From positions 1,632,001 through 1,696,000 of the forward strand of contig CAWGTN010000002.1 of assembly GCA_963825525.1 (NCBI GenBank): DNA of 64,000 nucleotides, written 5' to 3'. This DNA comes from an uncultured Chloroflexia bacterium (GTDB lineage Bacteria > Chloroflexota > Limnocylindria > QHBO01). Both the position numbers and the translations under genes were made by a program. Numbering within the stretch: the stretch's first letter is position 1; each line of letters opens with the position of its first letter. This document shows positions 40,402 through 44,619 of the stretch, piece by piece. The notes beneath the pieces were generated by a model. The model was given only the letters and a program-made list of their open reading frames with translations, was not told the DNA's origin and made no database searches.

Positions 40402-41427
40402 TCAGCGATCGTTCCAGGCTGATCGCGTCTCCTCCAGCAGCTCGGGCGTCAGCGAGACGTAGCCCGCCTCGGCGACGACGCCAATGCCCTCGTCTGACAG
40501 GTAGTAGTCGACGAAGTCGGCCACGGCCTGGACCTCGGAGGCCCGTTTGGTGTTGACGTAGATGAACAGGTCACGGCTGATCGGGTACTCGTTGCTGGCG
40601 ATCGTCTCGGTCGTCGGCGAGACGCAGCCATCCCCACCGTCCACCTCGAGGGCCTTGACCACGTCGGCGTTCTCCTCGAAGAATGCGAAACCCACCCAGC
40701 CGAGCGACGTCTCACTTCCGCTGATGCCCTCGACGATCACGTTGTCGTCCGCAGACGCCGTGTAGTCGGCGCGCGCCACGGGATCGGTGCTCCGAGCCTC
40801 GGCGATGCCGTCGAAGACGAGCTCAATGAAGCTGTCGTACGTGCCGGACTCTTCGCCCGGTGCCGTGACCTCGAGGGACACGTCCGGGTAGGGTGCGTGG
40901 GCCGGTCCGAACTCGTCGCCGACATCGGCGGCAAGCTCAGTGGCCAGGTCGTTTGCATCGCTCCAGTTGTCCATGCGCTGGGACTCGGGGCCGAGCAGCG
41001 CGTAAAGGTCGAGGAACGAGAGACAGGTCACCGCGTCGTTCGCGGTCGCGGTGATGACGCTGATGCCATCAACGGCGACCTTCAGCTCGACATATTCGAT
41101 CCCGTTCTCCGAGCACGCCGCGGCCTCCTCGTCCTTGATAGGTCGCGAGGCGTTGCTGATGTCGGTCGCGCCGTCGCAGAACAGAGCGAAGCCGTCGCCG
41201 GTGCCGGGACCGTCCACCTGGTAGTCAAAGCCGTCGGTGGTTGCCGCGAAGTCCTCGGCCACCAGCGAGGTGATCGGCTCGACAGTCGATGAGCCGGAAA
41301 CGATCACCGCACCGCCCTCAACGGCGTCATTCGACGCGCGAGGCGTGGTGACACATCCGGCAAGCGCCATGGTTCCGACCAGTGCCAGCGGGAGGATTCG
41401 CCGCGGCAGCTGTCGCGAGATGTTCAA
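40402..41427 (-). CDS. pstS: Phosphate-binding lipoprotein PstS
   Basis: TTG start after SD GAAGGAG; lipobox LAGC; GSSTV, GTGDG, ASR, SGTYD, YPISR. Confidence 0.9.
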   Translation of the reverse strand: MNISRQLPRRILPLALVGTMALAGCVTTPRASNDAVEGGAVIVSGSSTVEPITSLVAEDFAATTDGFDYQVDGPGTGDGFALFCDGATDISNASRPIKDEEAAACSENGIEYVELKVAVDGISVITATANDAVTCLSFLDLYALLGPESQRMDNWSDANDLATELAADVGDEFGPAHAPYPDVSLEVTAPGEESGTYDSFIELVFDGIAEARSTDPVARADYTASADDNVIVEGISGSETSLGWVGFAFFEENADVVKALEVDGGDGCVSPTTETIASNEYPISRDLFIYVNTKRASEVQAVADFVDYYLSDEGIGVVAEAGYVSLTPELLEETRSAWNDR

Positions 41428-41507
41428 CGATGCTCCTTCCGTACTCGTGAGTGCCCGTGCAACTCCAACGGACACCAGTTGACGTTGTCGAGCATGCGCC
41501 AGGCGCC

Positions 41508-41546
41508 TCAATGCACCCTCATGCACGTGTCAACGAAACGTCAACG
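41508..41546 (-). promoter_or_regulatory. Putative four-unit PHO box upstream of pstS
   Basis: On +, TCAA/TCAT/TCAA/TCAA at 41508, 41519, 41530 and 41541: exact 11-bp period. Confidence 0.6.
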
Positions 41547-41587
41547 AGCAGCGAATGGTCGAGGCGCCTCCGAGTTCGTGCCAGGCG

Positions 41588-42589
41588 TCAGCCCAGGATC
41601 GGTGTCAGGATCAGGTAGGCGACCGCCGCGGTGGCTCCGGAGGCCGGAATCGTGAGGATCCACGCGGTCACGATGCTGCGGGCCACGCCCCAGCGCACGG
41701 TCTTCAGCCGGTCCGACGAGCCGACGCCCATGATCGCCGAGCTGATGACGTGGGTGGTGCTGACCGGCATGCCGAAGTGGGAGGCGGCGAAGATCACGCT
41801 GGCTGCCGTGGTCTCGGCCGCGAACCCGTGGACCGGGTCGAGCTTGACCACCTTGGTGCCCATGGTCTTGATGATCCGCCAGCCTCCGGCGGCGGTTCCC
41901 AGGCTGAGCGCGGTGGCCGCGGTGAGGATCACCCACAGCGGAACCTTGAACTCGGGGATGACCCCGGCCGTGACGAGCGCCAGGGTCATGATGCCCATCG
42001 TCTTCTGGGCATCGTTGCTGCCATGGCTGAACGCCATCCAGGCCGCGGACAGCACCTGGAGGCGGCGAAACGCACCGTTGAGGCGCCCGGGATGGGCTCG
42101 TCGGAACACGTTGAAGAGGAGGCCCATCAGCAGCAGGCCGATGACGAAGCCGATGATCGGCGAGCCGACGAGCGGGAGGAGCACCTTGTTGACGACACCG
42201 TCGATCTGCCAGGCGCCGAAGCCGGCCGAGATGAACGCCGCTCCCAACAGCCCGCCGATCAGCGCGTGGCTGGATGACGAGGGGATGCCCAGTCGCCAGG
42301 TGATGAGATTCCACACGATGGCACCGATGAGCGCGGCAGCGATGACCGTCTGAGACTCCACGTTCGTGTCGATGAGTCCCGAGCCAACGGTCTTGGCCAC
42401 CGCGGTTCCGGTGAGCGCTCCCGCGAAGTTGGCGACGGCGCTCATGGCGATCGCCCACCCCGGCTTCAACGCTCGGGTGCTGACGCTGGTGGCGATGGCG
42501 TTCGCCGTGTCGTGGAAGCCGTTGATGTAGTCGAACGCGATCGCGAGCCCCAGGACGACCAGGAGCGTCAGCGTAAAGCCGTCAGGCAT
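41588..42589 (-). CDS. pit: Inorganic phosphate transporter (PiT family)
   Basis: NGFHDTANAIAT, PSSSSH, HGSNDAQK, PVSTTH. Confidence 0.93.
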   Translation of the reverse strand: MPDGFTLTLLVVLGLAIAFDYINGFHDTANAIATSVSTRALKPGWAIAMSAVANFAGALTGTAVAKTVGSGLIDTNVESQTVIAAALIGAIVWNLITWRLGIPSSSSHALIGGLLGAAFISAGFGAWQIDGVVNKVLLPLVGSPIIGFVIGLLLMGLLFNVFRRAHPGRLNGAFRRLQVLSAAWMAFSHGSNDAQKTMGIMTLALVTAGVIPEFKVPLWVILTAATALSLGTAAGGWRIIKTMGTKVVKLDPVHGFAAETTAASVIFAASHFGMPVSTTHVISSAIMGVGSSDRLKTVRWGVARSIVTAWILTIPASGATAAVAYLILTPILG

Positions 42590-43199
42590 GCTTGACGACG
42601 ATACGCTCGATCACGTTGGCCACGTCCTCGCACGAGTCGATGGTGTCCTCGAGCAGCGCGTAGAGATCCTTCCACTTGATGATCTCGAGCGTCTCGTTGC
42701 CGTTCGTGAAGAGGTCGGCGATGGCCTGCCGGACGAGGCGGTCGCCGTCGTTCTCGAGCCGATGGATCTCGATCCAATGCGGCCCGACATTCTTGAAGCC
42801 CTTGAGCTTCTGCAGGGCGCGGACGATCTCCTCGACCTGTTTCACGATGATCTCGGCTTGGTCGTGCGCCGTCTGCGTCGGCGCCTCGATCTTGTAGAGG
42901 ATGCAGGTGTCCGCAACTTCCTCGATGAAGTCGAGGACGTCGTCCAGCCGGCTGATCAGCTGGTGGATGTCCTCGCGGTCGAACGGCGTGACGAACGTGT
43001 TCTCGAGCTTGTGGCCGATGTCGTGGCTGAGCCCGTCGCCCTTGCGCTCGAGCTCACGGAGCTGGATGGCGATCCGCTCCCGCTGGTCGTAATTTCGGAA
43101 GAACTCCTCGAGCAACCGTGCCGCGACCAGGACGTTCTGGCCGTCGTCGACGAAGAGCTCGAAGAACTTCTCTTCGCGAGGAATGAACGGTAGTCGCAT
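42582..43199 (-). CDS. DUF47 (PhoU-like) Pit accessory protein
   Basis: FVTPFDREDI, HRLENDGD, IKWKDLY; directly upstream of pit. Confidence 0.9.
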   Translation of the reverse strand: MRLPFIPREEKFFELFVDDGQNVLVAARLLEEFFRNYDQRERIAIQLRELERKGDGLSHDIGHKLENTFVTPFDREDIHQLISRLDDVLDFIEEVADTCILYKIEAPTQTAHDQAEIIVKQVEEIVRALQKLKGFKNVGPHWIEIHRLENDGDRLVRQAIADLFTNGNETLEIIKWKDLYALLEDTIDSCEDVANVIERIVVKHA

Positions 43200-43306
43200 G
43201 AGCGATGGACTCTCCAGCCGGGCGCTGTCGGCGGCGGTCGCGTCGCCGCCCTTGAGCACAGCGGCAGCGTACATGCTCGTGGCCCTCCGTGAGCCAACGC
43301 GGTGCG

Positions 43307-43338
43307 GGGCCGGCCGGCCCTGATCGGCCGGCCGGCCC
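43307..43338. terminator. 13-bp hairpin downstream of the Cys-rich peptide
   Basis: GGGCCGGCCGGCC-CTGATC-GGCCGGCCGGCCC. Confidence 0.6.
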
Positions 43339-43347
43339 TTCAGTGGT

Positions 43348-43410
43348 TCAGCAGCCGCAGGATCCAGCGTCACAGCAGCCATCACCGCAGCAGTCGTCGT
43401 TGCGTCGCAT
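43348..43410 (-). CDS. 20-aa Cys-rich metallothionein-like peptide MRRNDDCCGDGCCDAGSCGC
   Basis: SD GGAGG 8 nt upstream, perfect TTGACA upstream, hairpin downstream; divergent from arsR. Confidence 0.65.
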   Translation of the reverse strand: MRRNDDCCGDGCCDAGSCGC

Positions 43411-43448
43411 CTTCATCACCTCCCTTCTCGGGTGTGCAATCCATGGAG

Positions 43449-43488
43449 CATATAGATGGTTGTCAATATGGACCGATATCGATATACT
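43449..43488. promoter_or_regulatory. ArsR-type operator with overlapping divergent promoters
   Basis: Inverted repeat CATATAGA-N6-TCAATATG (43449-43470); + strand TTGTCA-N17-TATACT; - strand TTGACA at 43461-43466. Confidence 0.7.
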
Positions 43489-43498
43489 CGCAACTGAC

Positions 43499-43789
43499 AT
43501 GAGCCGCTCCGATCCCGATATCACGTTCCTGTCCGCCCTGGCGGACCCCGTGCGCCTCTCGTTCGTCCGCCAGCTTGCCGCCGGGGACGGCGTGTGCGCC
43601 TGCGACTTCAGCGAGTGCTGCTCGGTCAGCCAGCCGACGATCAGCCACCACCTCAAGGTGCTGCGCGACGCCGGCGTGGTGACGAGCGAGCGGCGGGGCA
43701 CGAACATCGTCTATTCGCTGTCGCCCGACTTCGGCCGACGCTGGAGCGACATGGGGGCGAGCCTGGCCGGTCTGGTCCAGCTGGCGTGA
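43499..43789 (+). CDS. arsR: ArsR/SmtB family metalloregulator
   Basis: ALADPVRL, VCACDFSECC, SQPTISHHLKVL. Confidence 0.9.
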   Translation: MSRSDPDITFLSALADPVRLSFVRQLAAGDGVCACDFSECCSVSQPTISHHLKVLRDAGVVTSERRGTNIVYSLSPDFGRRWSDMGASLAGLVQLA

Positions 43790-43806
43790 AACATGAGGGA
43801 GAACCG

Positions 43807-44619
43807 ATGACCGAGCCGATCCACGAGCTTGTGCGGGAGCGTTATGCCCTGGCCGCGAACCAGGCGGCCAGCGGCTCCGGAGCGTGCTGTGGGCCCGAGG
43901 AGGGCATCGGCGCCGGCCTGTACAGCGCGCTCGAACGCGACGAGCTGCCCGAGGCGGCGGTGCTGGCTTCGCTGGGATGTGGCAATCCGACCGCGGTGGC
44001 GGACCTGCGTCCGGGGGAGCGGGTGCTCGACCTCGGGTCGGGCGGCGGAATCGATGTCCTGCTGTCGGCGAAACGGGTTGGGGCAGCGGGCCGTGCGTTC
44101 GGCCTCGACATGACCGACGAGATGCTCGCCCTCGCACAGCGCAACGCCGCGGCCAGCGGAGCCACGAACGTCGAGTTCCTCAAGGGCCAGATCGAGGCGA
44201 TTCCGCTCCCGGCCGCGTCGATCGACGTGGTCATCAGCAACTGCGTCGTGAACCTGGCCGCCGACAAGGGCGCCGTGTTCAGTGAGATCGCCCGTGTCCT
44301 GCGCCCCGGGGGCCGCATCGGCATCACCGACATCGTGGCCGAGGACACGCTGAGCCCCGAGCAGCGAGCGGAACGCGGCTCCTACGTCGGGTGCATCGCG
44401 GGCGCGCTTTCGTACGCCGAGTTCGAAACGGGCCTGCGCCAGGCCGGGCTGATCGACATCTCCCTGACGACGACCCACCAGGTCGCCGACGGCATGCACA
44501 GTGTCATCGCCCGAGCCACGAAGCCGATGCAATCCGCGGCAGATGCGCCGGCCCTGTCCGAGCTTCCGCTGGCCGTCGATGGCTGTGGCTGCGGAAGCGC
44601 ATCGGGCGGTTGCTGCTGA
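43807..44619 (+). CDS. arsM: Arsenite S-adenosylmethionine methyltransferase
   Basis: ACC, SLGCGNP, DLGSGGG, SNCVVNL, GCIAGA; Cys-rich tail GCGCGSASGGCC. Confidence 0.9.
   Translation: MTEPIHELVRERYALAANQAASGSGACCGPEEGIGAGLYSALERDELPEAAVLASLGCGNPTAVADLRPGERVLDLGSGGGIDVLLSAKRVGAAGRAFGLDMTDEMLALAQRNAAASGATNVEFLKGQIEAIPLPAASIDVVISNCVVNLAADKGAVFSEIARVLRPGGRIGITDIVAEDTLSPEQRAERGSYVGCIAGALSYAEFETGLRQAGLIDISLTTTHQVADGMHSVIARATKPMQSAADAPALSELPLAVDGCGCGSASGGCC

Follow-up and report, generated by a model that had tools for sequence, protein, structure and literature searches.

A conserved cysteine-rich micro-ORF beside arsR in Limnocylindria probably encodes an arsenic-switched metal(loid)-binding peptide

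In the 64-kb stretch of DNA analysed here (the window; 69% GC), a 20-codon open reading frame with the product MRRNDDCCGDGCCDAGSCGC lies divergent from an arsR gene, which raises the question whether so short a frame is a gene at all and, if it is, what its product does. Judged from the comparison of related loci, the micro-ORF is a real, conserved gene that has remained unannotated, and its product is probably an arsenic-switched metal(loid)-binding peptide. The coordinates of the features are collected in Table 1.

Table 1. Features of the micro-ORF locus in the window
Feature	Position	Strand	Description
Hairpin	43307..43338	minus	arms 43307-43319 and 43326-43338; perfect 13-bp, GC, 6-nt loop
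Micro-ORF	43348..43410	minus	20 codons and TGA; ATG 43410, TGA 43348
Shine-Dalgarno sequence	43417..43424	minus	GGGAGGTG; GGAGG core ends 8 nt ahead of ATG 43410
Candidate -10 of micro-ORF	43447..43452	minus	TATGCT (TANNNT); outer edge of O1; proposed from sequence position
Operator O1	43450..43469		ATATAGA-N6-TCAATAT; 20-bp inverted repeat; extra copy of the arsR operator
arsR promoter	43460..43488	plus	TTGTCA, 17 nt spacer, TATACT; 10/12 consensus matches; conserved across loci
Operator O2	43466..43485		ATATGGA-N6-TCGATAT; 4-nt overlap with O1; spans arsR spacer and part of the -10
arsR	43499..43789	plus	96 aa, ArsR/SmtB family; divergent from micro-ORF
arsM	43807..44619	plus	arsenite methyltransferase; NCBIfam NF008823, 284.5 bits (cut-off 263)

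Translation of the minus strand from 43410 to 43348 bears out the original prediction of a 20-aa product with six Cys and four Asp; Cys makes up 30% of the residues. The window has 933 start-stop combinations that give 15-40 aa; this Cys fraction (0.30) is the highest among them, the runner-up having 0.16. The peptide is acidic, is devoid of aromatic and hydrophobic residues and carries its Cys in three vicinal or near-vicinal groups; small, Cys-rich and free of aromatics, it has the operational properties of a metallothionein. The near-perfect Shine-Dalgarno (SD) sequence that had been predicted is present as well, with GGGAGG at 43424-43419 (minus strand), 8 nt 5' of the ATG. Two other in-frame starts, ATG 43416 and GTG 43419, lie so close to the SD, which they overlap or adjoin, that initiation there is improbable.

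The peptide was not recovered by searches of known sequences. Pfam yielded no family for the 20-aa peptide at E ≤ 0.01, NCBIfam yielded none for its 22-aa form at E ≤ 1 and none for nine relatives at E ≤ 10, and neither collection gave a profile match to the bacterial SmtA/BmtA-type metallothionein family. None of 10 peptide and extended-ORF sequences was present, by exact look-up, in a collection of 15 billion proteins. A tblastn search of the micro-peptide against plasmids gave no match, where the low-complexity filter may hide matches, and a literature search for an earlier description of the micro-peptide found none.

Because the micro-peptide is too short for a protein search, ArsR was chosen as the anchor for finding relatives, and an alignment of 47 ArsR sequences led to 220 related stretches in species-representative genomes. 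The loci analysed are the best 80 of these 220, in which ArsR is 66-86% identical to that of the window; they belong mostly to MAGs of Limnocylindria (Chloroflexota), nearly all of one class, in which assembly errors may explain some frameshifts. ArsR sequences at 76-95% identity formed more than 120 clusters, and the few with organism names were Chloroflexota or Limnocylindria MAGs. A micro-ORF was accepted if it had 10-40 aa, at least four Cys and at least 25% Cys. The original prediction had proposed a search for Cys-rich micro-ORFs opposite arsR in relatives, and such ORFs were found: in 30 of the best 80 of 220 loci a Cys/Asp/Gly-rich ORF of 12-26 aa is divergent from arsR, with its start 74-294 nt from the arsR start. 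One more locus (L075) has the micro-ORF on the same strand as arsR, 19 nt past the arsR stop; an AGGAGG and a hairpin of its own accompany it. This brings the total to 31 of the best 80 of 220 loci, with 49 lacking the micro-ORF, and to 32 members including the window. Relatives include MRHDDGCCDGGCDCGPGCC, MCCDPACCDGPCDCTGCC and MRLADCDCDCCEGCCTNGCC. Applied elsewhere to 670,314 nt of the loci on both strands, the same filter returned only 26 arsM C-terminal tails and three unrelated ORFs. The 32 micro-peptides contain 4-9 Cys; aromatics are rare (Phe3 in L005 and L029, Tyr in L079), and DCDCDC stretches occur in four members (L059, L060, L075 and L077).

Broken copies were also seen. The micro-ORF of L010 (L010:4857-4895) is frameshifted though the flanking proteins are 95-96% identical to those of the window, L008 carries a decayed micro-ORF upstream of 1169, and in L032 (L032:4847-4912) a 1-nt deletion removes the C-terminal CC; L007 is cut by a contig end. 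All four loci were counted with the misses. The broken copies in L010, L008 and L032 represent either real decay or MAG assembly errors. Taken with the 49 of the best 80 of 220 loci that lack it, the gene looks dispensable. On the ArsR tree, which has few columns and many unresolved forks, the trait is clustered, requiring nine changes as compared with 25.3 in shuffles (0 of 500 shuffles as low), and the style of the micro-peptide tracks the ArsR clade. Some loci of near-identical gene order bear non-Chloroflexota labels, namely L015, L064 and L068 (Steroidobacteraceae), L029 (Angelobacter), L024 (Gaiellales), L045 (Methylomirabilota) and L042 (Dormiibacterota), which points to mis-binned contigs or to recent transfer of the arsR-arsM unit.

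Several features indicate that the micro-ORF is translated. A 5-mer SD core is located 3-11 nt before the start in 30 of the 32 micro-ORFs (best 80 of 220 plus the window), whereas such a core occurs in 192 of 5000 random 20-mers and in 89 of 549 long ORFs when each is read from the start that makes it longest. The two exceptions among the micro-ORFs are the frameshifted L010 and L059, where a proper SD precedes an ATG located two codons further upstream. Codons vary synonymously within the family (TGC 195 vs TGT 16; also GAC/GAT and GGN), length differences are whole codons (e.g., 9 nt between the window and L049), and GC content by codon position is 0.52/0.74/0.82. Besides the Cys codons, Asp, Gly and the terminal CC are conserved. 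Regarding the 15 equal-length pairs with at least 60% identity, which are not independent of each other, there were 45 synonymous and 74 non-synonymous codon differences, and the base differences by codon position were 47/53/85. The family keeps its composition, while the exact sequence is under modest constraint.

Of the 32 micro-ORFs, 30 end in TGA (TAG in L069 and L070), compared with 348 of 550 long genes, and the ending TGC TGC TGA is nearly invariant. A selenoprotein, with UGA read-through and the hairpin as SECIS, was considered and ruled out: the read-through peptides are not conserved, two of 32 stops are TAG and the hairpin offset is variable. The next in-frame stop lies between 15 codons and beyond the 80 codons examined. 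As read-through is not conserved, the TGA preference probably reflects shared ancestry.

The control region links the micro-ORF to ArsR. The original prediction of a TTGACA inside an inverted repeat common to the arsR promoter agrees with what was found, the repeat being O1, 43450-43469, which contains TTGACA (minus strand, 43466..43461) and, on the plus strand, the arsR -35 TTGTCA; within this palindromic operator the arsR -35 region has TTGACA as its complement. The further statement that the minus strand has no clear -10 calls for a correction, since TATGCT (43452..43447) fits TANNNT at 8 nt past TTGACA. From its position TATGCT is the likelier -10 of the window micro-ORF. By script, 17 of the 31 divergent loci, the window among them, have a TANNNT at this distance (relatives from the best 80 of 220), and inspection by eye adds an eighteenth, L077, in which a different ATATTGAC copy had served the script as anchor. 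The arrangement TTGACA-N16-19-TANNNT occurs in 16 divergent loci (best 80 of 220 plus the window), with both kinds of -10 in three, so that the candidate -10 elements of the micro-ORF appear to fall into two complementary classes. In the short-type micro-ORF loci the promoter elements lie 38-70 nt from the ATG.

The palindrome ATATTGA-N6-TCAATAT, allowing up to two mismatches, precedes arsR in 74 of 81 loci (best 80 of 220 plus the window), with three background matches elsewhere in 734 kb. A double operator is present in 21 of 32 micro-ORF loci vs two of 49 loci without a micro-ORF (same sample), and these two are L007, cut by the contig end, and L008, with the decayed ORF. The remaining 11 micro-ORF loci score a single site; in L059 the second copy has three mismatches (by eye). 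Loci without a micro-ORF mostly have one copy, 29-41 nt before arsR and overlapping the -10 TATACT, with three at -63 to -70, whereas in the micro-ORF loci a second copy lies 16 nt further out, with ATAT common to both copies. In the window O1 overlaps the candidate -35 and -10 of the micro-ORF, which places an ArsR-type operator over the putative promoter in silico. With this promoter under the second operator copy O1, ArsR would repress the micro-ORF along with arsR-arsM. The arsR -10 TATACT ends 10 nt before the arsR ATG with no visible SD (window 43483-43501), a spacing that is the same across loci; this short gap and the lack of a visible SD suggest that the arsR mRNA is probably leaderless or near-leaderless.

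The 3' side of the micro-ORF is occupied by a hairpin. A 13-bp hairpin 10 nt past the stop had been predicted; the perfect 13-bp stem was confirmed, and the distance is 9 nt. No U tract follows, and when the region is folded, the MFE and the centroid structure both show the hairpin standing alone. Of the hairpins that can form within 60 nt past the stop, the best has a median of -25.2 kcal/mol for the micro-ORFs (n = 32; 75% at or below -20). The medians are -15.6 kcal/mol for random segments and -15.4 kcal/mol for the 60 nt that follow long genes (120 of each, with 23% and 22% at -20 or lower; Mann-Whitney p = 2e-6 and 8e-7, respectively). The offset from the micro-ORF stop is mostly 0-25 nt (43 nt in L069). 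Between the window and L049 and L010, its closest relatives (DUF47 and Pit 95-98% identical), two pairs of the stem differ in a compensatory way, AT taking the place of GC. The hairpin is likely a terminator or a 3' stabiliser of a mini-transcript. A consensus terminator scan of the window did not report it, because it has no T run. An Rfam match of PtaRNA1 to 43307-43340, obtained on 42900-43900, was below threshold (21.8 bits vs a gathering cut-off of 47, E = 0.11) and was taken as chance.

These features can be joined in a working model. ArsR occupying O1 and O2 would repress the micro-ORF and arsR-arsM promoters together. Binding of As(III) at ArsR Cys33, Cys35, Cys40 and Cys41, which are invariant in the alignment of ArsR sequences, would release the repressor. 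The mini-transcript would then be translated from the strong SD, with the hairpin ending or stabilising it, and the acidic micro-peptide would chelate cytoplasmic As(III), three thiolates per atom, or another thiophilic metal, acting as a gene-encoded thiol buffer (a micro-metallothionein or 'ribosomal phytochelatin'). From the sequences compared we infer that ArsR binds O1 and O2, that arsenite induces the gene, and that the micro-peptide binds metal(loid)s and is protective. As(III) is named as inducer and ligand on account of the arsM and arsC neighbours and the ArsR cysteines; Cd, Cu or Zn may take its place. The reading that we favour, with moderate confidence, is that of an ArsR-repressed, As(III)-inducible thiol peptide that would sequester As(III) or other thiophilic metals. 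More tentatively, and just short of what we would call probable, the micro-peptides may form a 'ribosomal phytochelatin' family of 12-26 aa, the smallest metallothionein-like peptides described, switched by arsenite via ArsR in a minimal two-gene sense-and-sequester module that is widespread in soil Limnocylindria.

Phytochelatins are thiol chelators of As(III) and Cd that are made enzymatically from glutathione and contain gamma-linkages. Like the synthetic (Glu-Cys)n peptides they alternate an acidic residue with Cys, as do the DCDCDC stretches here; unlike them, the micro-peptide would be ribosomal and alpha-linked. SmtA-type proteins are much longer than 12-26 aa. They have a Zn/Cd-cluster fold, His ligands and a defined sequence family, whereas the micro-peptides are almost without His (a single His in a few N-terminal regions). 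Loci of the smtB-smtA type, such as AzuR-NmtA, likewise place an ArsR/SmtB repressor beside a gene for a small Cys-rich metal-binding product, and the smtB-smtA analogy drawn in the original prediction fits the layout, which is divergent with a promoter/operator region in common with arsR. AzuR-NmtA is reported to have a palindromic 12-2-12 operator in the common promoter region, released by metal (PMC8790569), as compared with the 7-6-7 operator here. The ArsR of the present loci differs from smtB-smtA-type repressors by its Cys-rich alpha-3 type site and its arsenic-gene neighbours. By analogy, layout and logic would be those of smtB-smtA in miniature. A further likeness is offered by ArsD, which binds As(III) through Cys12, Cys13 and Cys18 (PMC12415280): its vicinal Cys pair with a third Cys nearby resembles the CC-x3-CC and CC-x2-3-C patterns of the micro-peptides. 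ArsD, however, is a folded protein that docks on ArsA, whereas the micro-peptide is too short to fold; neither arsA nor arsD turned up among the scanned neighbours of the micro-ORF loci. What appears to be new here is a metallothionein-like peptide under a putative ArsR/SmtB repressor that falls in none of the sequence families compared.

A functional peptide might also have another job, as a redox or thiol reservoir, in titrating As(III) from ArsR, as a carrier to ArsM or to an MFS exporter, or as the precursor of a modified product; we regard this as unlikely but by no means negligible. Composition alone does not tell these roles apart. The ArsM tail described in the original prediction as resembling the peptide is indeed there: GCGCGSASGGCC (window 44575-44619) is Cys-rich, the same filter recovered 26 such tails, and an MFS transporter gene comes after arsM in the window and many loci. 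The tail ends in GCGCGSGGCC, compared with ...GGACC or ...PGCC in the micro-peptides, so the composition is similar; it belongs to a 270-aa enzyme, and at such low complexity the likeness is compatible with common origin and with parallel function alike. As a conserved element, the Cys-rich tail (GCGCGSGGCC-type) lies about 1.07 kb past the arsR start in 26 loci. Gene content speaks against the carrier role. Within the best 80 of 220 loci, arsM follows arsR in all 49 without a micro-ORF vs 18 of 31 with one; ten micro-ORF loci with at least 1500 nt past arsR have no arsM, three more being too short to tell, and several have no MFS gene. The earlier suggestion of a chaperone feeding ArsM is weakened by these counts. 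As to a modified product, no modifying enzyme is conserved alongside and there is no leader-core organisation. A RiPP precursor was ruled out, since no adjacent enzyme is conserved across loci and the Cys core either opens the peptide or is preceded by 4-6 residues.

The gene that follows the micro-ORF bears on a different possibility, that of a regulatory leader (uORF) whose translation would, with the hairpin, control downstream DUF47-Pit, PstS or ChrA genes, the peptide itself being functionless. In the window DUF47/PhoU_div, Pit phosphate transporter and PstS genes lie downstream on the micro-ORF strand. Among the relatives (best 80 of 220), the next gene on this strand is DUF47-Pit in 12, the chromate transporter ChrA in six and PstS in four, so that an oxyanion transport component is next in 22 of 30 relatives as well as in the window. 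Arsenate is taken up via phosphate transporters, and the position of the hairpin, 0-25 nt past the stop and without a U tract, would suit a leader too; these points lend the idea some substance, yet it appears distinctly improbable. The downstream gene is not constant, being DinB_2 in L059, a protein without family match in L060 and RNHCP in L069 (not resolved in L034 and L041), and in L070, L077, L079 and L075 the next gene is convergent, leaving nothing for a uORF to lead. Four loci (L017, L019, L023 and L024) have arsR divergent from DUF47-Pit with a single operator and no micro-ORF, an arrangement consistent with loss of the micro-ORF together with O1. Moreover, conservation extends to Asp, Gly and the terminal CC, not to the Cys codons alone, and neither the MFE nor the centroid fold of this part of the window shows an alternative anti-terminator pairing. 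In the clade of L059, L060, L077 and L079, arsR is monocistronic and is followed by convergent luciferase-like and CN-hydrolase genes; as read from gene order, the whole module there is ArsR plus the micro-ORF, which is the only adjacent target. With the downstream gene variable and arsM absent in ten loci, the constant partner of the micro-ORF is ArsR. Without a U tract the hairpin may allow read-through into the next gene. Regarding the wider neighbourhood, the micro-ORF strand carries genes for oxyanion transport (DUF47-Pit, PstSCA or ChrA) at 40402-43199 of the window and on the corresponding side in 22 loci; ArsR-controlled read-through into them is conceivable and would suit arsenate stress.

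Consecutive Cys codons in a tiny unannotated ORF also recall the mycobacterial polycysteine sORFs, which are reported to be leaderless and constitutively transcribed, to lead operons with cysteine-associated genes that they regulate in cis and to be conserved among relatives (bioRxiv 10.1101/834739, Canestrari et al.). An attenuator of that type, in which stalling at the Cys codons would report cysteine supply, is very improbable for the present gene. Though at least two consecutive Cys codons are present, neither the leaderless mRNA nor the cysteine-gene operon was found: unlike those sORFs, the micro-ORF has a 5' leader with a strong SD, an ArsR operator, a terminal hairpin and variable neighbours, and no cysteine-metabolism family occurs among the scanned downstream genes. 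That the micro-ORF arose by chance in intergenic DNA of high GC content, or that it acts purely at the level of RNA or DNA, would fit a very short, TGC-rich, low-complexity sequence with no database entry but is next to excluded, given that the Cys-rich frame, start codon and SD are conserved where ArsR is 66-86% identical to that of the window, with synonymous changes and in-frame indels.

Known arsenic handling in bacteria includes efflux, reduction and methylation. If the thiol peptide favoured here binds As(III), cytoplasmic buffering by a dedicated gene product would be a new element of bacterial arsenic biology, and a metallothionein-like function would be encodable in about 60 nt. As Limnocylindria are uncultured bacteria that abound in soil, the module could bear on the fate of arsenic there. 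Work on biosensing or bioremediation would also gain a natural As-binding tag that is both regulated and very small. The micro-ORF, which its context brought to light and comparative genomics verified, is a clean case of a conserved functional gene too short to pass the length threshold that gene callers apply.

A second conserved small ORF, of about 50 aa, was observed in the 'long-spacing' loci (L001-L007, L009, L011, L013, L021, L029, L035 and L069), between arsR and the micro-ORF and on the micro-ORF strand (e.g., L003:4778-4933, minus); it is absent from the window. Searches gave no significant Pfam match, one of 12 members matching DUF6752 at E = 0.008, and 82 protein clusters, all hypothetical, with 25 representatives at E ≤ 0.001 and the Atlas clusters unnamed. 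The product has an N-terminal helix-like ELLASAHEADL..RR motif, followed by C-RRRLLG-LPI-C.
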